64,000 nucleotides of DNA from a virus, in the IMG/VR virus record IMGVR_UViG_3300006737_000017, positions 74,300-138,299 of that record; one strand, written 5' to 3'. A program made the translations under genes and the position numbers. The first letter of the stretch is position 1; each line of letters starts with the position of its first letter. Shown here piece by piece: positions 639 to 50,865 of this stretch. Under the pieces are notes generated by a model. That model saw only the letters and a list, made by a program, of their open reading frames with translations. It searched no databases and was not told where the DNA came from.

Positions 639-672
639 ATTTGGATAAGTCGAAAAAATTTATTATATTGTA
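639..672 (+). promoter_or_regulatory. Host-RNAP-type (early/middle) promoter, copy 1
   Basis: ATTTGGATAAGTCGAAAAAATTTATTATATTGTA, 33/34 identical to 19391-19424. TTTG-N20-TATATT resembles the Bacteroidota -33/-7 layout. Confidence 0.75.
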
Positions 673-6463: not shown

Positions 6464-6883
6464 ATGCCAGAAAATAACCCGATATTAATAAACCCAATTG
6501 ATCTTGAACCAGATGTTGCCATCGGTATTAGTTTACCTATGGATGCTTCAAATGGCGCAGCACTTCAAAGTACATTTTATACTAAAGATCAAATAAAGGC
6601 AAATATTACAAGTTTATTTTCAACTATGATTGGAGAAAGAGTTATGCAACCAACGTTTGGTACATATCTTTTCAATCTATTATTTGAACAAGTTAATACT
6701 GATTTGAAAGAAAAACAAATAAGAAATGAAGTAGATAGAGCTATACAACAATGGGTACCAGAAGTAATTGTAAATGAAGTATCATTTCCTGAAGTTATAG
6801 ATGAAAGAAAAATATTAATTAAATTGAAATATAGTATACCACAGTATAACTTAGAAGACGAATTAACTTTAGAGGCACAATAA
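6464..6883 (+). CDS. Baseplate wedge subunit (gp25-like)
   Basis: QIKANI..LFSTMIGERVMQPTFG..LLFE..W.PEV signature. Confidence 0.9.
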   Translation: MPENNPILINPIDLEPDVAIGISLPMDASNGAALQSTFYTKDQIKANITSLFSTMIGERVMQPTFGTYLFNLLFEQVNTDLKEKQIRNEVDRAIQQWVPEVIVNEVSFPEVIDERKILIKLKYSIPQYNLEDELTLEAQ

Positions 6884-6885
6884 TT

Positions 6886-8769
6886 ATGGCAAGTAAAGAT
6901 ATTAAATATGTAGGTAGAGATTTTGATGGTTTTAAGTCTAACTTGATAGAGTTTGCTAAAAACTATTTTCCTAATACCTATAATGACTTTGATACTGCAT
7001 CACCTGGTACAATGTTTATTGAGATGGCGTCTTATGTAGGAGATGTACTTTCATATTACACAGATTATGCATTAAAAGAAAGTATGTTGCACAGAGCAAC
7101 AGAGAGAAAGAATTTATACGACCTAGCACAAGGTTTTGGATATAAACCAAAAATTTCTGTAGCATCTACATGTAAATTAGATGTATATATAAAAATACCC
7201 GCATTACAAGTAGCGACAGAAGATAATGCATTCGGAGGAGCAGCATCAGCACCAGATTGGGACTATGCTCCAGTTATAGAACAAGGAATGGTAGTATCAA
7301 CAGATGGTGGTACAAAATTTTATACGATGAACTCAATCAATTTCCAAGCTTCATCATCCTCTGATACTACTGATGTAACTGTTCACACGATTAATGCAAC
7401 TACATCTAATCCGGAATATTATTTATTAAAGAAGACTGTATTAGTATCAAGTGGTGATATAAGAACTACTTCATATGGTGGAACTGGTACAAAATCTCAA
7501 AAGTTTACTATAAACGATGATAATGTAATAGGTATAAATGAAGTAACAGACGGCGACAGCAATAGATGGTATGAAGTTCCTTACCTAGCTCAAGACACTA
7601 TCTTTGGAGAAAATGTTAATAGCGCAGCTTTTGATCCAACAACAAGTGGAGAATCTTCTAAGACTCCATATATTTTAACGTTAAAGAAAACGCCAAGAAG
7701 ATTTGTAACAAGAATCAATGGTGATAATAAATTAGTTTTACAATTCGGTTCTGGTATTTCAACAATAGCAGATTCTTTAATATTACCAAACCCAAATAAT
7801 GTAGGTACAAATTTACCAGGTTCATCTGATAATTTGAACAAAGCTTTTGACCCTTCTAATTTTATGAAAACCAAAACTTATGGTCAAGCTCCAACTGAAG
7901 CTCTTACAATAAAATATACAGTTGGATATGGCTTAGCTGGTAATGTATCAACTGGAACTATAACAAGTGTCAATTCGAAAACTATTACACAAAATTCAGA
8001 TGACGTATCAGATGCTCTAAAGAATATAGTAGAAACTTCTATAGCAGTAAACAATCCTGAACCAGCAAGTGGAGGAAAATCACAAGAAACAATAGAAGAC
8101 GTTAGAGAAAATGCTCTTGCTCATTTTGCTACACAACAAAGAGCTGTAACTAAGGAAGATTATATAATAAGAGCATATTCAATGCCGCCTAAGTTTGGAT
8201 CTGTTCCAAAAGTATTTATAACTCAAGACACGCAAATAGATATGAAAACAAGAGAAGAAGTGAATAATCCTCTTGCTTTGAATATGTACGTTTTGGGATA
8301 TGATCAAAATAAAAACTTAGCTAATTGCAACGAAGCTTCAAAAAAGAATTTGAAAAATTATTTATCACAATACAGAATGATGACTGATTCTATAAATATT
8401 AAAAATGGGTACATAATAAATCTAGGAGTAGACTTTGAAATTGTAGTACTAGCAGGCTTTAACTCTAGAACAGTCGTCTTAACTTGTATAGATAAATTAA
8501 AAGAATTAATGCATATAGATAATATGCAATTTATGCAACCAATTATTATAAAAGATTTACAATTAGAACTTTCAAAAATAGACGGTGTTCAGTCTGTTAT
8601 GAAATTTGATATAAGAAATAAGTGGAGAACAAGCTTAGGTTATTCTGGGGTTAAATACAACTTAGAAGATGCTAATAAAGGTGGAATAATATATCCTTCA
8701 AAGGATCCGTCTATATTTGAAATAAAATATCCAAACATAGACATCCAAGGAAGAGCAACTACATATTAG
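6886..8769 (+). CDS. Baseplate wedge protein (gp6/baseplate J-like)
   Basis: RDFD..K..L, YVGDVLSYY, GG...ET..R...QQRAVTKEDY motifs. Confidence 0.9.
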   Translation: MASKDIKYVGRDFDGFKSNLIEFAKNYFPNTYNDFDTASPGTMFIEMASYVGDVLSYYTDYALKESMLHRATERKNLYDLAQGFGYKPKISVASTCKLDVYIKIPALQVATEDNAFGGAASAPDWDYAPVIEQGMVVSTDGGTKFYTMNSINFQASSSSDTTDVTVHTINATTSNPEYYLLKKTVLVSSGDIRTTSYGGTGTKSQKFTINDDNVIGINEVTDGDSNRWYEVPYLAQDTIFGENVNSAAFDPTTSGESSKTPYILTLKKTPRRFVTRINGDNKLVLQFGSGISTIADSLILPNPNNVGTNLPGSSDNLNKAFDPSNFMKTKTYGQAPTEALTIKYTVGYGLAGNVSTGTITSVNSKTITQNSDDVSDALKNIVETSIAVNNPEPASGGKSQETIEDVRENALAHFATQQRAVTKEDYIIRAYSMPPKFGSVPKVFITQDTQIDMKTREEVNNPLALNMYVLGYDQNKNLANCNEASKKNLKNYLSQYRMMTDSINIKNGYIINLGVDFEIVVLAGFNSRTVVLTCIDKLKELMHIDNMQFMQPIIIKDLQLELSKIDGVQSVMKFDIRNKWRTSLGYSGVKYNLEDANKGGIIYPSKDPSIFEIKYPNIDIQGRATTY

Positions 8770-19391: not shown

Positions 19392-19424
19392 TTTGGATAA
19401 GTCCAAAAAATTTATTATATTGTA
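19391..19424 (+). promoter_or_regulatory. Host-RNAP-type promoter, copy 2
   Basis: 33/34 identity to 639-672; the primase ATG follows 4 nt after the motif. Confidence 0.75.
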
Positions 19425-19428
19425 GTAA

Positions 19429-20349
19429 ATGAAAAAATCAAGATTAAAGAGGTTACTAGCAGCTCTACTAGGTAGAGGCTCTGAAAAGAATAAAGGCGAT
19501 GTTTGGCACAAATGCCCTTTTTGTAAACACCCAAAAAATAAACTTAGCGTAAACTTAATAAGTGAAAAATGGCACTGCTGGCATTGTAATGCTAAAGGTA
19601 GAAAATTATTTGTACTGCTTAAAAAGCTAAATGCTAATTCAAAACAAATAGAAGAATTAAACGATATACTTGGTGAAAGATCTTTTGCAATTGTAAATAA
19701 AAAAAGAGACGATTATGTTTCCTTGCCATTAGAATTTATTCCTCTATTAAATGGTAATATAAATTCTCCTCATTATAAAAATGCAATACATTATTTGAAA
19801 GGTAGAGGATTAAATAAAATAGACATACTTAGACATAATATAGGCTACGCAGAAAATGGTGAATATAATGGTATGATAATAATACCAAGCTATGACGCAG
19901 ACGGCGTAGTTAATTACTTTGTAAGTAGAGCTTTTTATGAAACAAATTATAAACACAAAAACCCTAATGTTTCAAAAGACGTAGTAGGTTTTGATATGTT
20001 AATAGATTGGAAAAAAGATATAAATTTAGTTGAAGGAGCTTTTGATGCAATAGCAACTGGTGATAATACAATACCTCTATTCGGTAAAATATTACCAGAT
20101 AATCTAAGTAAAAAGATAATAGAAAATAAAGTTAAAAGGATTAATATAATACTAGATTCTGATGCAAAGAAAGCAGCAATAAAACATTCAGAATATTTTA
20201 TGGGTAATGGTATAGATGTACATCTAATAGATTTACCAGGAAAAGATCCAAGTGAATTAGGAAAAGACGTAGTTAATAGATTGATCAGTGAATCAAAGAA
20301 ATTAACTTTCGGTAAGATAATGGAGTATAAAATTAATGCAGCATGTTAA
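19429..20349 (+). CDS. DNA primase (Zn finger + TOPRIM)
   Basis: CPFC..WHCWHC, YLKGRG, LVEGAFDA, LDSDA, KDPSE. Confidence 0.9.
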   Translation: MKKSRLKRLLAALLGRGSEKNKGDVWHKCPFCKHPKNKLSVNLISEKWHCWHCNAKGRKLFVLLKKLNANSKQIEELNDILGERSFAIVNKKRDDYVSLPLEFIPLLNGNINSPHYKNAIHYLKGRGLNKIDILRHNIGYAENGEYNGMIIIPSYDADGVVNYFVSRAFYETNYKHKNPNVSKDVVGFDMLIDWKKDINLVEGAFDAIATGDNTIPLFGKILPDNLSKKIIENKVKRINIILDSDAKKAAIKHSEYFMGNGIDVHLIDLPGKDPSELGKDVVNRLISESKKLTFGKIMEYKINAAC

Positions 20350-23300
20350 AGTCGATTTTGAAAATGTAAATAAAATTTTACACATTGCAGACGTTCATAT
20401 AAGAAATTACCAACGTCACAAAGAATATAGGTCAATATTCAAAGAATTGTATAAAGCTGCAAAGGCTTTACCTAACAATTCTTTGATTTATATTGCGGGA
20501 GATATAGTACATAACAAAACAGATATATCACCAGAGCTAATAGAGATAACCTCAGAATTTCTAAAGAAACTAGCAGACATAAAACCTACTATACTTATCA
20601 AAGGTAACCATGACACCAATCTAAACAACGATACGAGACTAGATACACTGTCTCCTATAGTTAAGAACTTAAATCATAAAAATTTATTTTACTTAGATAA
20701 GACCGATGTATACAGAATTGCAGATTGCAACTTTTCTGTATTTGAAATTGCAGATGAGGTAAGCAATTATATTAAAGCAAAAGATATAGATGGAAAAAAT
20801 AAAATAGCCTTGTTTCACGGAGCTATAGACTCATCAGCAACTGACGCTGGCTTTAAGGTAGCAAATGAAGAACATAAAATAGATTTATTTGAAGATTACG
20901 ATTTAGTCTTGCTTGGTGATATACACAAAAGACAATTTCTAAATAAAGAAAAAACCATTTGTTATGCTGGTAGTTTGATACAACAAAATTTTGGTGAAGC
21001 TTATGAAAATCATGGCTATATAGTTTGGGATGTTAAAACTAAAAGTTACGAAGAATTTAGTATAAAAAATGAATATGGATATTACACAATCCATATAAAA
21101 GATGGTATTATAAATCAAGACCTAAGTGATATACCAAAATATCCTAGATTAAGGTTTAAGATTGTAAATACAACTCAAGCACAAATAAAAGAAGTTGTAA
21201 AAGAAATAAGAAAAAAATGCAAAGTTCAAGATGTAATAATAATTAGAGAAGATAAAATAAAAGGTTCATCGGAAAATAAATCTTCTAGAAGAATAACCAA
21301 AGACGTTCGTAATGTAGAGTATCAAAACGAAATGATAGAAGAATACTTGAATAAAAACCACGAAATAGAACCAAGCATATTATCTGAGATAAAGTCTATA
21401 AATAGAAACTTGAATAATAATTTGTCAGATATAGAAATAGGTAGGGGTATAGATTGGAAACCTGTAAAATTTGAATTTTCAAATATGTTTTCATATGGAC
21501 CGGGTAACGTTGTAAACTTTGAAAAGTTAAATGGTTTAATTGGAATATTTGCACAAAATCATATAGGTAAATCTGCTTTATTAGATTCTTTGTCTTTTTG
21601 TTTATTTGATAGATGCAGTAGAGGAAAAAAAGCTGATGACATAATGAATACTCAAAAATCAACTTTTTCTTGTAAGTTGCATTTTAAGATAGAAGAGGTA
21701 GACTATTATATAGAAAGAACTGCTAAGAGAAGAAGAAATAATACAAAGATTAGAGTTGACGTTGACTTTTGGTATATCGATGAAGGTGGAGAAAGGGTCG
21801 ATTTGAATGGTGAACAAAGAAGAGACACCGACAAAAATATCAGGGGTATAGTTGGAGAATACGAAGATTTTATTTTAACGGCTTTATCTGTACAAGGTAA
21901 TAATACAGGCTTTATAGAAAAAACACAAACAGAAAGAAAAGAGTTGCTTTCTCAATTTTTAGATATAACCGTATTTGAAGAATTATATCAATTAGCAAAT
22001 GAAGATATAAAAGAAGTTCAAATACTATTAAAAGATTTTAATAAGACTGATTATGATTCCGAGTTAATAGAAGCAGAAGACCAACTAAAAGATAGTAAAG
22101 CAGAATACAAGCAATCTAGTAAAACTGTTTCTAGAATAAAATCTAATATAAAAGACAAAGACGAAGAGCTTAAAGAATTGTACAAATCTTTGAGAAAAGT
22201 TAAAAAGGATTTAGACATAGTAGACTTAAAGAAGAGAAAAGAAGAACTTGAAGAGGAAGCGGTATTAGACTTAAGTAAACTTAATAAATACAAAGACTAT
22301 ACAGAAAAAAATAAAGTTGAGTATAAAAATATTAGTTTAGAACTTTCCAAAATAGATATTGAAAAAGCAAAAGCAAACCAAAAAAACTATTTAGCTGATG
22401 AAAAGGTAATGCAAAAGTTAAATACTAAATTAAAATTGTTAAAGTCTGAAGTTAAAAATGCTAAAGAAAAACTTGATGCAATAGGTACATTCGACCCCAA
22501 CTGTGACTTTTGTAAAAATAATTCTTTTGTAAAAAGTGCAGAAAGAATAAAATTGCAAATAGATCAATGCAAAATTGAATACATAGCTCTAATGAAAGAT
22601 ATTTCTAAGTGCAATCAAAAACTAGAATCTTATGGAGAATTTGAAGATTTGATAGATGAGTATGCAAAATTAGAAAAAAAGGTTTCAACTATACAAGTTT
22701 ATCAATCTGAAATAAAAGTTAAGACTGTAACAAGGAAGTCAAATATAAAACGTTGCAAATCTGAAATAAGAGCTATAGATAAAGATATAAAGAAATATTA
22801 CGAAAATGAAGAGGTTATCCTTTTTAATGAAAAAGTCAATAAAGAAATTGCAAAGAAAGAGTTATCTAAAACAAAGTGGGAAGCTGACTTAGAATTAAAG
22901 GAAGAAGACCTAGTTGAAAAACATTCTTCTGTTAGTTTATGGAAAACTAAAATTGAAACTATAAATAATACAATTGAAAAAGCTCATCAATTGGAAATAA
23001 AATTAAAGTCATATGAATATTACCTAGAAGCAATTCAAAGAGACGGTATACCCTATGAAATAATTTCAGAAGTCCTTCCATATATACAAGACGAAGTTAA
23101 CACTATACTTTCTCAGATGGTTGACTTTACTATAGAATTTGAAGTAGACGGTAAATCAGTTTTAACCTATATCGTTTACGACAATAAAAAGTGGTCTTTA
23201 GAATTAACTTCTGGTATGGAAAAGTTCATATCTTCTTTAGCAATACGTGTTGCACTAATAAACGTTTCAAATTTACCAAGGCCGAATTTTTTAGCAATAG

Positions 23301-23479
23301 ACGAAGGTTTTGGAACATTAGATTCTGAAAACTTAAGTTCAATGGAAAGCATGTTTAGTTATTTGAAATCGGAGTTTGATTACATAATAATTATTTCTCA
23401 TATAGAATCTCTAAAAGATGTAACAGATTCTTTAATAGAGATAAATAGGAAAGGCGAATTCTCCAACGTTATTCACTAG
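20336..23479 (+). CDS. Fused Mre11/SbcD nuclease and Rad50/SbcC ATPase (gp47-gp46 fusion)
   Basis: ADVH, AGD, GNHD, HG, GDIH phosphoesterase motifs; Walker A NHIGKS; zinc hook CDFC; signature TSGME; Walker B/D-loop IDEGFGTLD; ISH. Confidence 0.92.
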   Translation: MQHVKVDFENVNKILHIADVHIRNYQRHKEYRSIFKELYKAAKALPNNSLIYIAGDIVHNKTDISPELIEITSEFLKKLADIKPTILIKGNHDTNLNNDTRLDTLSPIVKNLNHKNLFYLDKTDVYRIADCNFSVFEIADEVSNYIKAKDIDGKNKIALFHGAIDSSATDAGFKVANEEHKIDLFEDYDLVLLGDIHKRQFLNKEKTICYAGSLIQQNFGEAYENHGYIVWDVKTKSYEEFSIKNEYGYYTIHIKDGIINQDLSDIPKYPRLRFKIVNTTQAQIKEVVKEIRKKCKVQDVIIIREDKIKGSSENKSSRRITKDVRNVEYQNEMIEEYLNKNHEIEPSILSEIKSINRNLNNNLSDIEIGRGIDWKPVKFEFSNMFSYGPGNVVNFEKLNGLIGIFAQNHIGKSALLDSLSFCLFDRCSRGKKADDIMNTQKSTFSCKLHFKIEEVDYYIERTAKRRRNNTKIRVDVDFWYIDEGGERVDLNGEQRRDTDKNIRGIVGEYEDFILTALSVQGNNTGFIEKTQTERKELLSQFLDITVFEELYQLANEDIKEVQILLKDFNKTDYDSELIEAEDQLKDSKAEYKQSSKTVSRIKSNIKDKDEELKELYKSLRKVKKDLDIVDLKKRKEELEEEAVLDLSKLNKYKDYTEKNKVEYKNISLELSKIDIEKAKANQKNYLADEKVMQKLNTKLKLLKSEVKNAKEKLDAIGTFDPNCDFCKNNSFVKSAERIKLQIDQCKIEYIALMKDISKCNQKLESYGEFEDLIDEYAKLEKKVSTIQVYQSEIKVKTVTRKSNIKRCKSEIRAIDKDIKKYYENEEVILFNEKVNKEIAKKELSKTKWEADLELKEEDLVEKHSSVSLWKTKIETINNTIEKAHQLEIKLKSYEYYLEAIQRDGIPYEIISEVLPYIQDEVNTILSQMVDFTIEFEVDGKSVLTYIVYDNKKWSLELTSGMEKFISSLAIRVALINVSNLPRPNFLAIDEGFGTLDSENLSSMESMFSYLKSEFDYIIIISHIESLKDVTDSLIEINRKGEFSNVIH

Positions 23480-43870: not shown

Positions 43871-44731
43871 ATGAAATATAAAAAATTGAAACACTCTAAA
43901 TTCAAAAATACAGGTGTATTGTTTGAACTACTGGTAAGACAAATTACTAGTGACACTTTGAACGGTGTAAAGAAATCTCCTGCTATAAAAATATTAGAAA
44001 CGCATTTTAATTCTAAAACTAATATTAGAAAAGAAATACAAATGTATCATACTTTGCAAAATCAAAAGTTTAATACAGAAGATAAAGCTAATAGATTTAT
44101 AGATGCAGTTATAAGAGAATATGCTAAAATTAATAGAACAGCATTAAGAAAAGAGAAATATAATTTGATTAAAGAAATAAAGCTAAATTATAATCTAGAA
44201 GCTTTTTTCAAAACTAAAATTTCAAATTATAAAATGAATGCATCTATTGCTAAAACTTTAGATAAAGATTATGTAAACCCAGCAGATAAGGTAAGATCAA
44301 GATATACTATCATAGAATCTATAACTGGTAAATCTTCAGAAGTTGGAAAACAAAAAGCAACTGTCTTAAAAGAATTTTCACAAGGCGATAAAGATCTAAG
44401 GATATTATCTTATAATATATTGCTAGAAAAGTTCAATGCTAAATATGGAAAACTTAGTATTTCGCAAAAGAGATTGTTAAAAGAATATATTAATAATGTT
44501 TCAAATACTGAGAGGTTAAAGAAATATGCAGACTCTGAAGTTATAAAGCTTGCAAATAGCTTAAGTAAATGTGAAACAAGGGTTAATGATAAAATTGTAA
44601 AAATAAAAATAGCTGAAGTAAAAACGCAATTGTTAAAAATACAAGGCGAAAAGAAAATAAAAGATTTACATCTAGTTTCTTTGCTTCGTTCTTATGATTT
44701 AATAAAGGAGTTGAAAAATGTCTCTAAATAA
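43871..44731 (+). CDS. Hypothetical head-module protein
   Basis: Basic helical ORF between portal and protease; late motif at 43844-43853. Confidence 0.7.
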   Translation: MKYKKLKHSKFKNTGVLFELLVRQITSDTLNGVKKSPAIKILETHFNSKTNIRKEIQMYHTLQNQKFNTEDKANRFIDAVIREYAKINRTALRKEKYNLIKEIKLNYNLEAFFKTKISNYKMNASIAKTLDKDYVNPADKVRSRYTIIESITGKSSEVGKQKATVLKEFSQGDKDLRILSYNILLEKFNAKYGKLSISQKRLLKEYINNVSNTERLKKYADSEVIKLANSLSKCETRVNDKIVKIKIAEVKTQLLKIQGEKKIKDLHLVSLLRSYDLIKELKNVSK

Positions 44732-45164: not shown

Positions 45165-45301
45165 TGAAAAAGAAAAAGACTATATTAAAAGAAAAACTAG
45201 AAAAAGAAGATCTAGCAAGAATACGAAAAATAATTCGTTCTGAAATTGCTGAACTGTTTTTTGATTTATATAGAAAAAGAACCGTTTGGAGCAAGCAATG
45301 A
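45164..45301 (+). CDS. 45-aa hypothetical protein (absent from the ORF track)
   Basis: MKKKKTILKEKLEKEDLARIRKIIRSEIAELFFDLYRKRTVWSKQ; TAATG and ATGA overlaps at its two ends. Confidence 0.7.
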   Translation: MKKKKTILKEKLEKEDLARIRKIIRSEIAELFFDLYRKRTVWSKQ

Positions 45302-45930
45302 AAAATATTTTAATAGATACTATACCATTTAATGTAAGCCCAGAACTGATCAAAGAATCAGAAGAAAAAAATAACGGAAGAGTTATTGTTACTGGTGTTC
45401 TACAAAGAGCTGGAGCTAAAAATCAAAATGGTAGAATTTATCCAAAAGAAATTTTAGTTAGAGAAGCTGAAAAATATGCAAAGACTGAAATAGCAGAAAG
45501 AAGAGCTTTAGGCGAATTAGATCACCCAGATTCTTCTGTTGTTAATTTGCAAAATGCTTCACACAATATAAATAAGATATGGTGGAAAGACAACGATTTA
45601 ATGGGACAAGTAGAAGTACTTGGAACTCCTTCTGGTAATATACTAAAGGAATTGTTAAAAGCTAATATAAAATTGGGAATATCTTCTAGAGGTATGGGAT
45701 CCGTTAAACAATTATCCGAAGATGGCACATTAGAAGTACAAGGCGATTTTGAATTAGTTTGTTGGGATTTTGTAAGTAACCCTTCAACTCATGGAGCTTT
45801 TATGCATCCAGTAAACGAATCTGTTACAAAAACTATTGTAAATAATAAATACGAAAAAGTAAACTCTATAATAAACGAAATACTTTGCGACTTAACATGC
45901 AAATGTTCTTTACCTAGAAGGAGAAAATAA
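45298..45930 (+). CDS. Prohead protease (gp21-like)
   Basis: KNQNGRIYP, ALGELDHP, LGISSRGMGS, WDFVSNPS. ATG 45298 preferred as start. Confidence 0.95.
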   Translation: MKNILIDTIPFNVSPELIKESEEKNNGRVIVTGVLQRAGAKNQNGRIYPKEILVREAEKYAKTEIAERRALGELDHPDSSVVNLQNASHNINKIWWKDNDLMGQVEVLGTPSGNILKELLKANIKLGISSRGMGSVKQLSEDGTLEVQGDFELVCWDFVSNPSTHGAFMHPVNESVTKTIVNNKYEKVNSIINEILCDLTCKCSLPRRRK

Positions 45931-46652
45931 TGAAATTAAAAAGAATACTAAAAGAAAATGAAGAAGCTCAAGCTAAGTCTTTAACAAGAGAACAGAAAAG
46001 AGCTATTATCGATTCAGTTTCTAAATTCAATGAATACGGTAAATCTGTATACAGAGAATCAGATATTAAAGAAATGGTTAAAACAATAAAAGAGCTTTCA
46101 GCAAATGCTTCTGAATTAGCTGTAAACGAAGCTGGTGATTGGTTTGATGGTATCTCCGTAAAAAGAGATATGAAAGAAGTAAACGCTTCGGTTAGTTTAT
46201 TTGAAAAGACTGCAAATGAAATAGCAACACTTCAACAAAGACTAGAATCTGTATTTGAAGATGTAGGTCATAAGCTTGGTAAATATTACGAAATCAAAGA
46301 AGAACTAGATAAGATAGACGATAAAGAAGCTGAAACTGATTATGACGACCTCGAAGATAAAGACATAGATAACGACGGAGACACAGATGATTCAGATGAG
46401 TACTTACATCACAAACTAGGAGTTGTAGCAAAGAAAACTGAAGGTATATCTTTAAGCAAATTGAAAAATGAAGCTGCTCCTAAAATGAGAAAGAATCCAG
46501 AAGCTGAAAAAATTGACAAAATATATAAAGCAGCATATCTTCTAAGAAAAGGTGGAGCTGGTAATAGATATGGAAAAGAATTTGAATCTGCTAAAAAGAA
46601 AGCACTTAAAGCTTTAGCAGATATGTATAAATATTCAAAGATAGGAGTGTAA
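45930..46652 (+). CDS. Putative prohead core/internal protein with DxDxDG motif
   Basis: MKLKRILKE leader; DKDIDNDGDTDDSDEYL. Confidence 0.6.
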   Translation: MKLKRILKENEEAQAKSLTREQKRAIIDSVSKFNEYGKSVYRESDIKEMVKTIKELSANASELAVNEAGDWFDGISVKRDMKEVNASVSLFEKTANEIATLQQRLESVFEDVGHKLGKYYEIKEELDKIDDKEAETDYDDLEDKDIDNDGDTDDSDEYLHHKLGVVAKKTEGISLSKLKNEAAPKMRKNPEAEKIDKIYKAAYLLRKGGAGNRYGKEFESAKKKALKALADMYKYSKIGV

Positions 46653-46654
46653 CA

Positions 46655-47611
46655 ATGAATTCTGAAACAATTAGAAAAATAATTAAAGAAGAATTACAAG
46701 CTCTTCTACTAACAGAAAAATTTCAATCTAAAAAGCTTACAAATTTATACTCTTTACTTTCAGCTGAAAGATGGTCTGGAGGAAAAAAGATATTTGATAA
46801 AATAGCTAGAGCTAAATCTTTTGATTGGGCAAATACACCGGACTCTGCAGTTAAGAAAGCAACATCTGGTAATGCAGATGCTAATACCTTAAATATATTT
46901 GTAGTAACTAAGGCAAAGCAAAATACTAGAGATAGAAGCTACGGTTATAATACTGTTAGGCCTGGTTTACTTGGTATGACTTTAGGAAAGAAAGTATTAG
47001 GTGGTAATGGTAACATAGTTTCTAAAAGAGGCGATAGAGCTGGAGAAGATTATACTAAGAAAGGTATTCATAACTTCAAAGCTTTCAATGAATTTTCAGA
47101 CGAAGTTTATCAAATAAACATAGTTGGCATTCCAAGCTCAGCTGATGTTCAAAAATCAAGAGCAGAAGCAAAAGATGGTGCAGCTGCTTTAATGACAGCA
47201 AGAGATGTACTAAGAAAGAATAAACAAAGATATCAAGATGCTTTAACTATGAAAGCTGGAGAAGGCGGTTGGAAATCAGCAAGAGATATGGTAAAAAGAG
47301 CAACAGATATATTTACAAATGCAATTGGTAATCACACTAAAATGTTATCTAATGGTATGTACATGAATACATGGAATAACGAATATGGTAATGCTTCAAA
47401 TTTATATAGTAGCATAATGGATAAATTCAAAAGATTCCAAGAGCAAAACAAATCTGCTATGAAATATAAAGCTGATGGAAGAGAAATGAAATATCATACA
47501 GATAGAATGGCTGGAACATTAAAAGACATGCAAGATTTATTCAAAGATTTTGCTAAAAGAATGAAACAATTGGAAAATGCTAAACCAGAAAAAATCAAAG
47601 CAGGTTGGTAA
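46655..47611 (+). CDS. Putative head-internal protein
   Basis: IRKIIKEELQALLLTE leader; basic. Confidence 0.6.
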   Translation: MNSETIRKIIKEELQALLLTEKFQSKKLTNLYSLLSAERWSGGKKIFDKIARAKSFDWANTPDSAVKKATSGNADANTLNIFVVTKAKQNTRDRSYGYNTVRPGLLGMTLGKKVLGGNGNIVSKRGDRAGEDYTKKGIHNFKAFNEFSDEVYQINIVGIPSSADVQKSRAEAKDGAAALMTARDVLRKNKQRYQDALTMKAGEGGWKSARDMVKRATDIFTNAIGNHTKMLSNGMYMNTWNNEYGNASNLYSSIMDKFKRFQEQNKSAMKYKADGREMKYHTDRMAGTLKDMQDLFKDFAKRMKQLENAKPEKIKAGW

Positions 47612-47640
47612 TAAAAAATAATCATCGCTCTCAATAAAAA

Positions 47641-47675
47641 AGTTGGCTTATTCTTTGGATAAGTCAATTTTTTTT
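47641..47675 (+). terminator. Intrinsic terminator overlapping the bS21 promoter
   Basis: AGTTGGCTTATTC-TTT-GGATAAGTCAATT stem (with G-U pairs) followed by a T-run. Confidence 0.75.
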
Positions 47676-47686
47676 GTTATATTAGT
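47653..47686 (+). promoter_or_regulatory. Host-RNAP-type promoter, copy 3
   Basis: TTTGGATAAGTC...TTATATT with the same spacing as copies at 639 and 19391. Confidence 0.7.
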
Positions 47687-47721
47687 ACTAATAATATTAA
47701 TTCACTAAAAACAATAATACT

Positions 47722-48057
47722 ATGGGTAAATTTATTCCTAAAGACAGGTCTGGTAAGCCTATTAAAAATTACCGCAAAAGACACGAATTTATAATGCCGG
47801 GAGTTCCATCTGGAGTCAAAGTTCCAGGGACATCGTCTGGAGATGTAGAAAAAGCTCTTAAAATATTTAAGAGACAAATGAAAGACAGCGGAACATTAGA
47901 AGAATTAAGAGATAGAAGATATTTCATTAAGGAATCTAAGAAAAGAGTTATACAAAAAGAAAAAGCAGTAAGAGCTCAACAAAAGCATGACAGATGGAGA
48001 AAAGCTCATGATAAAAATCACATCTGGACTGCAATAATAGACGGCAAGGCGCAATAA
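47722..48057 (+). CDS. rpsU: Phage-encoded 30S ribosomal protein bS21 with N- and C-terminal extensions
   Basis: VKV....DVEKALKIFKRQMKDSGTLEELRDRRYFIKESKKR fits the bS21 core. Confidence 0.85.
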   Translation: MGKFIPKDRSGKPIKNYRKRHEFIMPGVPSGVKVPGTSSGDVEKALKIFKRQMKDSGTLEELRDRRYFIKESKKRVIQKEKAVRAQQKHDRWRKAHDKNHIWTAIIDGKAQ

Positions 48058-48075
48058 TAACCATTTAAGGCATCT

Positions 48076-48123
48076 AATTTAGGTAATATATAAAAATATT
48101 GCCTAAATTGTTGCGGTTTTTTT
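48076..48123 (+). terminator. Hairpin/terminator after bS21
   Basis: AATTTAGGTAATAT-ATAAAA-ATATTGCCTAAATT, then GTTGCGG and a T-run. Confidence 0.65.
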
Positions 48124-48143
48124 AGTCTTTTCATATATTCCTA

Positions 48144-48273
48144 TATATTTATATTCACAAACGATATACAAAAATGCGTTATCTATTCTAATATAATGCA
48201 GTATATGAAAAACAATCGATATTAAGGTTCATAATAACCTTACTTCCAAATTACATATTAAAGGAGAGAAATA
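48144..48273 (+). promoter_or_regulatory. Late promoter plus structured leader of the scaffold/capsid operon
   Basis: TATTTATA at 48146-48153; stems ATATAC/GTATAT, TGCGTTAT/ATAATGCA and TAAGGTT/AACCTTA. Confidence 0.55.
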
Positions 48274-49209
48274 ATGTCAAAAGACTTATTGAAAGAAGCT
48301 ATTGCTGACGCGAAGGCTGTTAGAGAAACTGCAATTGCAAACGCAAAATTAGCTTTAGAAGAAGCTTTTACTCCAAAACTACAATCTATGCTATCTGCAA
48401 AGATACAGGAAGAAGAAGAATTAGAGGAAACTGAATTAGCTGACGAAGATACTGCACCGAATGCAGAGGAAATGGCAATGGCTGATGAAACAACTGATTT
48501 AGCTGCTGAAAATGATGAAACAGAAGAAGCAGCAGAACCTGCAGAAGAGATGGCTTATGGTGAAGGTGAAGAAGTAGAAGAAGGTGAAGACACTGAGGAA
48601 GGTATCAAAGAAGACGAAGAAGTTGAAGAAACTGAAGACGTTGAAGAAGATGCTGAACTAGAAGAAATCATCAAAGAATTAGAGGAAGAGGATGACGAAG
48701 TATCAGAAGAAGAAACTATGGACGAAGCTGAAGATGTTGAAGAAGCTGAAGAAGTAGAAGAAGACGAAGATATGGACGAAAGCCTAGACCTTGACGAAGT
48801 AATTAAATCATTACAAGAAGAAGAAATGGAAGAAGAAGAAGTTGAAGAAGTTGATGAACTTGAAGAAGCATATAAGACTATTAGATCTTTGAAAGCTACA
48901 ATCAATGAAGTTAATTTGCTTAATGCAAAACTTTTATTTTCTAACAAATTATTCAGAAGTAACGACTTAAATGAATCGCAAAAAATGAAAGTAATCGAAA
49001 CTTTCGATAGAGCAGGTTCTGTAAGAGAAGTTAAATTAGTTTATACTACTTTAGCTGAATCATTAACAGCATATACTCCATCAAGAAAGAAAAGAGTAAC
49101 TGAAGGCTTTGCATCAAAAACTTCTAAATCGACTGCACCTAAGAAAGGTGTTATAGTTGAAAGTAATGACTTTGCTAATAGAATGAAAAAATTAGCTGGT
49201 CTATTGTAA
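48274..49209 (+). CDS. Prohead scaffold/core protein
   Basis: Very Glu-rich centre with helical ends; immediately upstream of the major capsid gene. Confidence 0.8.
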   Translation: MSKDLLKEAIADAKAVRETAIANAKLALEEAFTPKLQSMLSAKIQEEEELEETELADEDTAPNAEEMAMADETTDLAAENDETEEAAEPAEEMAYGEGEEVEEGEDTEEGIKEDEEVEETEDVEEDAELEEIIKELEEEDDEVSEEETMDEAEDVEEAEEVEEDEDMDESLDLDEVIKSLQEEEMEEEEVEEVDELEEAYKTIRSLKATINEVNLLNAKLLFSNKLFRSNDLNESQKMKVIETFDRAGSVREVKLVYTTLAESLTAYTPSRKKRVTEGFASKTSKSTAPKKGVIVESNDFANRMKKLAGLL

Positions 49210-49248
49210 AACGAATTAATAATTTTAGAAATTAATAGGAGACAAAAA

Positions 49249-50865
49249 ATGTCAAATCAAATTTCAAACTTACTAAATGAAAGCTCTAATCAGTTTCGTG
49301 CACAAAGAAACGAGACTAAAGCTTTAGTTAGTAAATGGAACTCAACTGGTCTTCTTGAAGGTATCGATAAAGAATACGATAAGCATAATACTGCAATCCT
49401 TTTAGAAAACCAAGCGAAACAATTAATTTCCGAAGCAAATGCTACTTCTACTACTTCAGCTGAAGAATGGAACGGCGTTGCTCTTCCACTAGTTAGAAGA
49501 ATCTTCGGTGAATTAAGCGCTAAAGAATTTGTTAGCGTACAACCAATGAACTTACCATCAGGACTAGTATTCTGGTTAGATTTCAAATATGGATCTGATA
49601 TCCAGGGCGATGCTAATGGTAAGAAATTTACAGATGGAACTGATATCTTAGGTGATACTTCATCTTCATCTACACCAACAGGTGGTATTTACGGTAGAGG
49701 TAAAGCTGGATATACAGCTGGACAAGGTTCTGCTACTGCTGTAACTGCTGCTCACGCAACTGCATCTTGGGAAGATGTTGGATATGACGGTGCACTTTCT
49801 GCATCTGCTGCTGCAGGTACAATTATGAAAGTAACTTTAGCATCAACTAACTATCCAACAGATTTCGATTCTGATATGGTTAAGTCTGCTGCTATCTCTT
49901 GTTCAGATGGTGGTAAATTCGATGTAGCTGATAACTTATCTGCTTACAACTTTACTGAAGGAACTAACTCATACTTCTTTACTTCAAAAGATACTGCTGG
50001 TGGAGCTGCTCCAACTGCAATCGGAAAGATCTTCTTTACGAAAGCTCCAGCTGATAACTTATCAAGAGGTGACTTCGAAGCTAATGACGCTGAGCCAACA
50101 ACTAATGATTTAGGTATTCCTCAAATCGATGTTGCTTTAAGACAAGAAGCTTTAGTTGCTAAGACTAGAAAGTTAAAAGTTGTATGGACTCCAGAATTTG
50201 CTCAAGATTTGAATGCTTATCATTCAATTGATGCAGAGGCTGAGTTAACTTCAATGTTATCTGAATACATCTCAATGGAAATCGATATGGAAATCTTAGA
50301 GATGGTTGATTCAGCTGCATTACATGAAGATACTTGGATTGCTGAATTAGGTAAAACAGCTACTGCTGGTTCTGATGTATTAGCTGATGCTGGAAATGCT
50401 GCTGCTTATACTCAAGCTACTTGGTTCCAAACGTTAGGTACTAAATTACAGAAAGTTTCTAATAAGATTCACGCTTCAACAATGAGAGGAGGAGCAAACT
50501 TCGTAGTATGTTCTCCAGATGTTGCAACAATCTTAGAATCTTTAACTGGGTTTGGGGCTGATACTGATGGTCTTAAAAATCAATTTGCTATGGGTGTTCA
50601 AAAGATCGGTGCTATCAATAACAGATACACTGTATACAAGAACCCTTACTGGCAAGATAACGTTTTATTAATGGGCTTTAGAGGATCTCAATTCCTTGAA
50701 ACTGGAGCAGTTTATGCACCGTATATTCCATTAATTATGACGCCATTGGTTTATGATCCTACTAACTTTACGCCAAGAAAAGGTGTAATGACTAGGTATG
50801 CTAAGAAAGTAGTAAGACCTGAATTCTACGGTAAGATCAACATCGGTCAATTGAATACTATATAA
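49249..50865 (+). CDS. Major capsid protein (gp23-like)
   Basis: VQPMNLPSGLVF, AKTRKLKVVWTPEFAQDLNAYHSIDAEAEL, YAPYIPL, PRKGVMTRYA. Confidence 0.97.
   Translation: MSNQISNLLNESSNQFRAQRNETKALVSKWNSTGLLEGIDKEYDKHNTAILLENQAKQLISEANATSTTSAEEWNGVALPLVRRIFGELSAKEFVSVQPMNLPSGLVFWLDFKYGSDIQGDANGKKFTDGTDILGDTSSSSTPTGGIYGRGKAGYTAGQGSATAVTAAHATASWEDVGYDGALSASAAAGTIMKVTLASTNYPTDFDSDMVKSAAISCSDGGKFDVADNLSAYNFTEGTNSYFFTSKDTAGGAAPTAIGKIFFTKAPADNLSRGDFEANDAEPTTNDLGIPQIDVALRQEALVAKTRKLKVVWTPEFAQDLNAYHSIDAEAELTSMLSEYISMEIDMEILEMVDSAALHEDTWIAELGKTATAGSDVLADAGNAAAYTQATWFQTLGTKLQKVSNKIHASTMRGGANFVVCSPDVATILESLTGFGADTDGLKNQFAMGVQKIGAINNRYTVYKNPYWQDNVLLMGFRGSQFLETGAVYAPYIPLIMTPLVYDPTNFTPRKGVMTRYAKKVVRPEFYGKINIGQLNTI

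Follow-up and report, generated by a model that had tools for sequence, protein, structure and literature searches.

A self-contained, Shine-Dalgarno-less bS21 cassette among the head genes of a T4-like phage: a possible ribosome-retuning switch

A 64,000-nucleotide stretch of viral DNA (positions 74,300 to 138,299 of the IMG/VR record IMGVR_UViG_3300006737_000017; hereafter the window) encodes a ribosomal protein bS21 at 47722-48057, among the head genes of a T4-like myovirus. It was found that this gene forms a self-contained cassette, which lies between two hairpins, has its own copy of a repeated early-type promoter and lacks a Shine-Dalgarno (SD) sequence. The cassette is conserved among metagenomic relatives. 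Genes directly behind early-type promoters mostly lack an SD while late-promoter genes mostly have one, the bS21-bearing clade of these phages is SD-rich while its bS21-less sister is SD-poor, and the tyrosine with which a Flavobacterium bS21 holds the 3′ tail of 16S rRNA is replaced by arginine. I propose, with a probability of roughly 0.45, that the cassette is expressed early and retunes initiation toward SD-led phage messages in a host whose ribosomes are blind to the SD. From these features I infer that the cassette acts early, that the host is SD-blind, and that the protein enters the ribosome and frees the anti-SD. Why phages often carry bS21, and why Bacteroidia keep an anti-SD that they do not use, are two questions that this locus ties together in a testable manner.

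Results

Anatomy of the bS21 cassette

The features of the cassette are as follows (window positions, plus strand).

47636-47674: terminator-like hairpin with a T-run, closing the upstream late head operon (fold and terminator scan)
47654-47685: early-type promoter of bS21, with TTTG at 47654-47657 and the -7-like box TATATTAG at 47678-47685
47690-47721: predicted 32-nt leader, A/U-rich, G-free and SD-less, its start deduced from promoter geometry
47722-48057: long-form phage bS21 of 111 aa (call of the open reading frame (ORF), Pfam and TIGRFAM)
48059-48123: hairpin followed by a T7 run, the probable bS21 terminator (fold)
48144-48153: late-type motif TATATTTATA, 120 nt ahead of the scaffold-like gene
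48260-48265: AAGGAG before the scaffold-like ORF (sequence)
48274-49209: acidic scaffold-like ORF, the first SD-led late gene past the cassette

The late operon upstream of bS21 ends at 47611 and is followed by the sole terminator-like site of the interval 47000-49300 (shuffle mean 0.8). The hairpin at this site has a folding energy of -16.3 kcal/mol (z -6.09), and none of 200 shuffles folds equally well. The 3′ arm of this hairpin and the -33 part of the bS21 promoter overlap, making a composite terminator/promoter. On the other side of the gene, the hairpin within 48055-48125 reaches -18.8 kcal/mol (z -3.70; one of 200 shuffles as good); the simple terminator scan of 47000-49300 did not call it. 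Late transcription is predicted to restart past the cassette at TATATTTATA. The late-type word GATATTTATA is present in 15 copies on the plus strand and in none on the minus strand.

The bS21 promoter resembles the Bacteroidota sigma-A type. TTTG stands 20 nt upstream of TATATTAG, in what I take to be the place and spacing of the -33 element of such promoters, and the 20-nt spacer contains a conserved GATAAGTC box. TATATTAG matches five of the six specified positions of TAnnTTTG, the sigma-A box placed at -12 to -5 in Flavobacterium (PMC9723704). With the box set at that distance here, the start is predicted near 47690. The resulting leader offers nothing to the anti-SD: the bS21 start and the anti-SD core give a duplex energy of +2.0 kcal/mol. 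The leader together with the start region (47684-47760) is less structured than its shuffles (z +1.56), 193 of 200 of which fold at least as well.

A preliminary description of the window, made from its letters, had placed bS21 among head genes, between two hairpins, under its own copy of a host-type promoter instead of the late motif, and with no SD at its start. All of this was borne out: the prohead protease side lies upstream, the scaffold-like ORF and the gp23 capsid gene lie downstream, and the promoter is one of 23 copies.

Contigs from four metatranscriptome runs of one study were compared with 46000-50000. They cover the scaffold-like and capsid genes, and one 163-nt contig from one of the four runs lies over 47871-48033 of bS21 with 11 mismatches, and thus stems from a relative. 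No listed contig of the four runs spans 48034-48244. Contigs of this kind reveal neither the end points nor the levels of transcripts, the libraries may contain DNA, and no conclusion is based on this coverage.

Promoter classes and SD use within the genome

The strict form of the early-type promoter, G[AT]T[AT][AT]GTC-N9-14-T[TA]ATATT, occurs 23 times on the plus strand (the bS21 copy at 47658-47683) and never on the minus strand, while 20 shuffles held two copies in total, or about 0.1 each. In positions of the whole record (genome positions), eleven copies lie in a small-ORF region at 56.6-74.9 kb and nine lie ahead of left-half genes up to 56 kb. The window contains three, which precede ORF 708, a nuclease-like operon at 19429-23479 and bS21. 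This promoter class serves the early-looking region and the replication genes. The two other copies in the window are:

644-669, plus strand: early-type promoter ahead of ORF 708-929, which has AGGAG
19396-19421, plus strand: early-type promoter whose box is followed after 7 nt by the ATG of ORF 19429-20349, a leaderless type

An SD was scored as any of three 4-mers at -18 to -5 of a start codon, and early and late timing classes were assigned from the motifs. Of the first genes past the strict motif, 2 of 23 have an SD, compared with 71 of 142 other plus-strand genes (Fisher p 1.7e-4). With looser boxes, 4 of 23 early and 9 of 12 late genes of the focal genome have one (p 0.002), and an independent complete relative, G006, gave 3 of 20 and 11 of 17 (p 0.003). 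The background of SDs at internal ATGs in the focal genome is 7%, and GGAG peaks at -10/-11.

Around bS21 the SDs are strong. Six of the eight nearest genes (starts at 44718, 45930, 46655, 48274, 49249 and 50993) give anti-SD duplexes of -7.3 to -9.3 kcal/mol, the weaker two being 45164 (-3.6) and 45286 (-1.1, with a TTG start). AGGAG or AAGGAG precedes 45930, 46655, 48274, 49249, 50993, 51746, 54601 (sheath) and 56453 (tube). The statement in the preliminary description that virion genes are SD-led thus stands for the scaffold-like, capsid, sheath and tube genes, and so does its caveat that ORF 708 has AGGAG despite the same promoter type. The expected division of SDs between early and late genes was found for promoter-proximal genes (4 of 23 against 9 of 12); by genome region it is not clean.

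Two further traits of the early-type promoters were observed. Nine of the 23 (39%) have an ATG no more than 7 nt from the TTATATT box, among them those at 19396-19431 of the window and at genome positions 3233, 7156, 15481, 23927, 32321, 54976 and 55947. With the box at -12 to -5, transcription would start on the A of the ATG and the message would be leaderless. G006 has six such cases, and leaderless messages make up 5.5% of the mRNAs of F. psychrophilum (PMC9723704). The second trait is the word TTGTTAATAAC, found a short way ahead of several of these promoters, both in the focal genome (genome 10560-10600, 57370-57400, 64930-64950 and 70060-70090) and in G006. It may be a regulator site or a piece of a shared terminator.

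Conservation of the cassette

Is this arrangement maintained in relatives? Conservation was assessed in 48 distinct upstream contexts of metagenomic relatives, from which L026 and L063, with truncated bS21 calls, were excluded. Of the 48, 41 have a T[TA]ATATT box at 25-75 nt ahead of bS21. A hairpin with a T-run is present upstream in 30 and downstream in 35 (the strict detector missed the focal downstream copy), and a late-like A/T-rich word (loosely defined, ATTTATA included) is present within 140 nt downstream in 35. Only one of the 48 has an SD before bS21. Counted by locus, 67 of 68 distinct loci could be evaluated, and in 66 of them no SD precedes bS21, while the neighbouring genes have SDs at 14-100%.

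It is conceivable that the flanks mark a shuffled cassette of the PeSL (promoter-early stem-loop) type, that the insulation is a by-product, and that bS21 has a role unrelated to the SD, such as supplying or repairing ribosomes or mimicking host bS21. Composite terminator/early-promoter motifs mediate modular shuffling in T4-like phages (PMC4122927), and the bS21 junction shows part of that pattern: a stem-loop with a promoter, a promoter word repeated 23 times, and an indel, the cassette being absent at exactly this junction in the relatives L214 and L215. In Flavobacterium phage immuto, another small ORF is located nearby. Moreover, because 21 of 23 first genes past the early promoter lack an SD, bS21 is not special in lacking it. 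I nevertheless regard this explanation as improbable. The cassette and its flanks are kept at the same junction down to 36% protein identity, which favours maintenance over recent shuffling, and shuffling leaves the link between bS21 and SD use unexplained. A PeSL-type origin of the flanks may hold alongside ribosome retuning, without deciding the function.

The bS21 protein and the anti-SD pocket

The 111-aa protein matches Pfam Ribosomal_S21 (PF01165) over residues 40-86 with 47.6 bits (cut-off 27; E 1.3e-12) and TIGR00030 with 44.7 bits (cut-off 28.95), and the top matches of a PDB sequence search are bS21 chains. It consists of a basic N-terminal extension (1-35), a bS21 core (about 36-87) and a C-terminal tail that includes W102. 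An ungapped alignment with the F. johnsoniae bS21 (64 aa) pairs residues 36-87 with its residues 6-57, and relative to it the phage protein has about 30 additional N-terminal and about 17 additional C-terminal residues. The preliminary description had noted both extensions and put the N-terminal one at about 28 residues, close to this value.

A search of 5.8 billion proteins gave 42 relatives of 89-123 aa, most of which cover at least 90% of the query; two shorter family members cover 52% and 70%. At least 106 stretches in IMG/VR encode the long-form family. Among 59 sequences F23, G27, V32, P35, K50, A82 and W102 are invariant and R20 is nearly so. An alternative start, the ATG at residue 25, was rejected because the N-terminal extension, with R20, F23 and G27, is conserved at the protein level in these sequences. 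An AlphaFold2 model (mean predicted local distance difference test score 84.1) has helices at 39-56, 58-66 and 71-98, and short bridges link the N-terminal extension with the tail. Foldseek found nothing in the PDB at E ≤ 0.001 for this model. VIA-align ranked bS21 chains first at Z 4.1-4.4, level with unrelated helices; its top row, the bS21 chain 8fmw_U (Z 4.4, root-mean-square deviation 8.8, 69 aligned), is not above unrelated helical rows, and no fold conclusion is drawn from it.

The long form was not found in cultured phages by tblastn at 1e-5. At E ≤ 1 only weak matches appeared, in 'Microcystis' phage Mel-JY01, four Melnitz phages and two uncultured records. The bS21 of Mel-JY01 (PP395634.1) is 75 aa long, lacks Tyr at the key column and is preceded by AAGGA; the phage is recorded on Microcystis elabens and falls in the capsid group of Flavobacterium and Rhodothermus phages. 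Genes for bS18 or bS6 were not found in the focal record, which is estimated to be 80% complete.

Tyr54 of the F. johnsoniae bS21 is stacked on A1534, the adjacent Ile55 lies packed against the 3′ tail, and the C-terminal part of Bacteroidetes bS21 is less basic than that of other phyla (Jha 2021, PMC7797042). Ribosomes of this species without bS21 read the SD (PMC7797042, PMC9976891). The alignment at this pocket, which the preliminary description had proposed as a check, puts Arg84 in the place of Tyr54 and Ala85 in the place of Ile55, so that the Bacteroidia-type signature is missing from the focal protein; in the family profile, the Arg column aligns with the Tyr of a second Tyr-bearing chain. 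Among 56 distinct proteins aligned by hmmalign, the Tyr54 column holds R in 37, A in nine, Y in six, L in three and K in one. The C-terminal domain is basic as well: in 47 long-form proteins, the residues past the KPS-type motif have net charges of +3 to +12 with a median of +8, to be read against the qualitative statement of Jha 2021 alone. Nor does the gene have the strong SD that precedes rpsU in Flavobacteriales, its leader being free of G.

The opposite action is also conceivable, namely that phage bS21 sequesters the anti-SD like the host protein, or acts off the ribosome, and that the SDs of the phage serve, for example, a bS21-free pool of ribosomes. Chen et al. 2022 read a Tyr54-bearing phage bS21 as anti-SD-sequestering (PMC9723584), and six relatives of the focal phage keep Tyr54. 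Sequestration is very improbable here, given the Arg at the Tyr54 column and the basic C-terminal domain. In addition, the F. johnsoniae results lead one to expect that an extra sequestering bS21 would cut translation of the phage's own SD-led genes.

SD use and bS21 across relatives

By its capsid protein, the focal phage is nearest among cultured phages to Mel-JY01 (52%), immuto (51%) and Rhodothermus phage RM378 (36%). SD use in large genomes was as follows.

Focal record: bS21 present; SD in 74 of 168 genes (44%)
G006: bS21 present; SD in 71 of 181 (39%)
Mel-JY01: bS21 present; SD in 56 of 231 (24%)
immuto: bS21 absent; SD in 10 of 219 (5%)
G012: bS21 not found in L107, the capsid locus of 21.6 kb that was scanned for it; SD in 7 of 212 (3%)

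The comparison was extended to loci sampled by their capsid gene. Of 224 loci, 132 were kept (full-length capsid gene, at least six called genes, duplicates removed), and the 97 of these that extend 4 kb or more upstream of the capsid gene were compared. The 50 loci with bS21 have SDs at 23-82% of genes (median about 53%), while 46 of the 47 loci without it have 0-26% (median for the 47 about 5%; both medians are from row labels). On a capsid tree with RM378 as outgroup there is one split, between a bS21-less clade of 46 rows, including immuto, and a bS21-bearing clade of 51 rows with support 87. RM378 has no bS21 and has SDs in 3 of 15 genes near its capsid gene. That the bS21 clade is SD-rich and its bS21-less sister SD-poor hints at ribosome retuning without proving it.

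In the bS21-less clade (immuto and L107-L182), SD-like cores are less frequent at starts than at internal ATGs, with 5% against 15.5% in immuto, suggesting that the SD is avoided in this clade and not just missing.

The host

A 1082-aa protein of the phage has a type A sorting tail of the type IX secretion system (T9SS), scored by two models at 41 bits (cut-off 27) and 38.4 bits (cut-off 23). Similar tails were found in five of the seven other bS21-bearing large records searched (G005-G008 and G010), and in immuto and G012. Among the bS21-bearing large records searched, none was found in G009, the complete G011 or Mel-JY01. Since T9SS-tailed proteins occur in both the bS21-bearing and the bS21-less groups, the host of the focal lineage is probably a marine, T9SS-bearing member of the Bacteroidota. 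The promoters and A-rich leaders of immuto resemble the early ones of the focal phage.

The ORF of the 1082-aa protein lies before the window (genome 43791-47039; L087), and its N-terminus is signal-peptide-like. The tailed ORFs of the five bS21-bearing relatives are 960-1058 aa long, and those of immuto and G012 are shorter (245-253 aa). Neighbours of the tailed protein in the ESM Atlas are viral clusters only and give no host lead. A pattern scan of genome contigs with the family alignment matched 98 stretches, none of them a relative.

Discussion

How might the cassette work? The upstream terminator would stop the late head operon, and the early-type promoter would then drive a message with a short, G-free, unstructured and SD-less leader, the type that SD-blind Bacteroidia ribosomes translate. 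Phage bS21 would be made early on unmodified host ribosomes and enter the 30S subunit, replacing or joining the host bS21. Start-site choice would shift to AGGAG-led phage messages, that is, to 44% of all genes and to most late-promoter genes, while SD-less host messages would lose out. The second, probable terminator and the late motif come after bS21. The stronger statement, that the virus turns host ribosomes from SD-blind to SD-reading by an early bS21 variant of its own, is possible, with the odds somewhat against it. If true, about half of the phage genes, and most of the late ones, use a translation dialect foreign to host messages, and the swap is both a temporal switch for phage protein synthesis and a translational host shut-off. 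The N-terminal extension and the Trp tail would then win the site and keep the 3′ tail of 16S rRNA from the bS18/bS6 groove.

Several observations weigh against ribosome retuning. Within the focal genome, about 42% of replication-half genes have an SD. Because many of these SD-led genes lie inside early-promoter operons, the SD split is one between promoter-proximal genes and the rest rather than cleanly one between early and late genes. The SD counts, within and between genomes, depend on ORFs and start codons that were called by a home-made program. Six SD-rich loci (38-52%; L183, L185, L186, L246, L250 and L197) keep the Tyr, so that loss of Tyr54 is not needed for an SD-rich genome, and this loss was ruled out as the clade-wide cause of SD use. 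On the capsid tree, bS21 changes state twice and SD use three times, with only two independent pairs. Since a single root split carries it, the association of bS21 with SD use is essentially one evolutionary event, which a single host shift would account for equally well. An SD-rich lineage, L214 and L215, has no bS21 at the syntenic junction: a 131-nt gap (6807-6939) separates the homologue of ORF 46655 from the scaffold-like gene, and L214 has SDs in eight of nine called genes. Their contigs are just 8-22% complete, so bS21 may sit elsewhere. A T9SS tail does not prove that host ribosomes ignore the SD. Such tails occur beyond the SD-blind Bacteroidia, and the host could be an SD-competent one within the Fibrobacteres-Chlorobi-Bacteroidetes (FCB) group. 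Finally, Chen et al. 2022 tie phage bS21 expression to late replication and describe the protein as acting like that of the host (PMC9723584).

These points lead to another explanation: an SD-competent, T9SS-bearing host in or near the Bacteroidota, with ordinary phage SDs, a generic bS21 of aquatic phages that boosts or biases initiation (a role proposed for that of pelagiphage HTVC008M), and a host shift behind the link between bS21 and SD use. The single split on the capsid tree agrees with it, and so do the Tyr54-bearing bS21 proteins of SD-rich genomes and the missing T9SS tails of G011 and of Mel-JY01, which has bS21, uses SDs and is recorded on Microcystis. bS21 is common in phages of non-Bacteroidota, the Melnitz phages are among the weak matches, and in E. 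coli bS21 is required for pairing between mRNA and 16S rRNA (PMC6375957). This explanation, the main rival, is less likely than retuning in my estimation. The T9SS tails unite the focal phage and five of seven bS21-bearing records with the proven Flavobacterium phage immuto, whose promoters and leaders are like the early ones of the focal phage, and it would be odd for 19-21 of 23 early-proximal genes to avoid the SD, nine of them looking leaderless, if the ribosome read the SD from the outset.

Ribosome retuning, as first sketched in the preliminary description, is therefore a claim with partial support. The SD-less early-type bS21, the SD-led late genes and the Arg in the place of Tyr54 favour it, and the single phylogenetic split does not. 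As for the host, T9SS-bearing Bacteroidota are probable from the sorting tails, while SD-blindness is something I infer. What the locus offers is a contrast between bS21-bearing, SD-rich phages and bS21-less, SD-poor phages, the hosts of both seemingly T9SS-bearing. If bS21 is causal, this would be the first virus to change, through the exchange of a single protein, how ribosomes select mRNAs, and a tool for orthogonal translation in Bacteroidota.

Other features of the record

The window is the final 64 kb of a 138,299-bp record with 32% G+C. The gene set of the phage (terminase, portal, prohead protease, gp23 capsid protein, sheath and tube) is that of a T4-like myovirus. The genes next to the cassette are:

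45286-45930: prohead protease, upstream of bS21, where two unnamed head-module ORFs also lie
49249-50865: gp23 capsid gene, downstream of bS21

The early-type-promoter operon at 19429-23479 lies inside the tail-gene region. Its first ORF (19429-20349; 306 aa) is unnamed, and the second (20336-23479; 1047 aa) encodes a fusion of a Metallophos nuclease domain with AAA_23, which is SbcC/Rad50-like.

A circularly permuted transfer-messenger RNA (tmRNA) was found at genome 72517-72677 (L088 16518-16678), about 1.6-1.8 kb ahead of the window start (Rfam RF04321, 66.9 bits against a gathering threshold of 47). ARAGORN calls a tmRNA there too, and the late-type word GATATTTATA precedes it at genome 72493. 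Genome 68639-68713 encodes a tRNA-Arg(TCT).

Comparison with known systems

Replacement of host bS21 by phage bS21 is already published as an idea (PMC9976891, PMC9723584, PMC6375957, PMC7162821). A link between phage bS21 and SD-rich phage genomes was not found in the literature searched, supplementary files aside. Four further points were likewise not found there and appear to be new: the conserved SD-less early cassette of the long-form family, the exchange of Tyr for Arg, the split in SD use between promoter classes, and the contrast between clades in bS21 and SD use.

Among the closest known cases are the Bacteroidetes-infecting lake myophages of Chen et al. 2022 (PMC9723584). Their bS21 likewise lies among terminase, portal, protease and capsid genes, and it was likewise proposed to replace host bS21 and to favour phage mRNAs. 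The virion-gene setting of the focal locus fits this type, while the strand and the residue at the Tyr54 column do not: the gene of Chen et al. is on the reverse strand and keeps Tyr54 or an aromatic residue, whereas the focal one is co-directional with its neighbours, has its own early-type promoter and has Arg. The focal genome is SD-rich, and the article of Chen et al., supplements aside, was not found to contain an SD analysis of phage genes.

The pelagiphage HTVC008M (Mizuno et al. 2019, PMC6375957) is likewise a large myovirus with bS21. Its protein, 54% identical to that of Pelagibacter, enters E. coli ribosomes. This bS21 is host-like, whereas the focal one is of the long form, and the available text of that study does not propose an SD/anti-SD logic. 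The rpS21 of huge phages (Al-Shayeb et al. 2020, PMC7162821) likewise has a basic N-terminal extension, theirs being aromatic as well, and the extension was predicted to aid competitive binding to the ribosome. The available text ties the absence of SDs to rpS1 and not to rpS21, and mentions neither a Trp tail nor an insulated cassette.

PeSL cassettes (Comeau 2014, PMC4122927; Arbiol 2010, PMC2839356), which recur in their genomes, likewise combine a stem-loop and an early promoter with a small accessory gene. They occupy hyperplastic regions of enterobacterial and Vibrio T4-like phages, whereas the focal cassette lies in a conserved head module throughout a deep clade.

Autoregulation of rpsU in F. 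johnsoniae (PMC7797042, PMC9976891) concerns the same ribosomal site. There the anti-SD is free or not according to whether bS21 is in place, and only the alternative form of the ribosome reads an SD-led message. On phages, the text of McNutt 2023 (PMC9976891) offers speculation only. In the phage the logic is inverted: the host rpsU gene has the single strong SD, while the phage bS21 gene is one of a few SD-less genes in SD-led surroundings.

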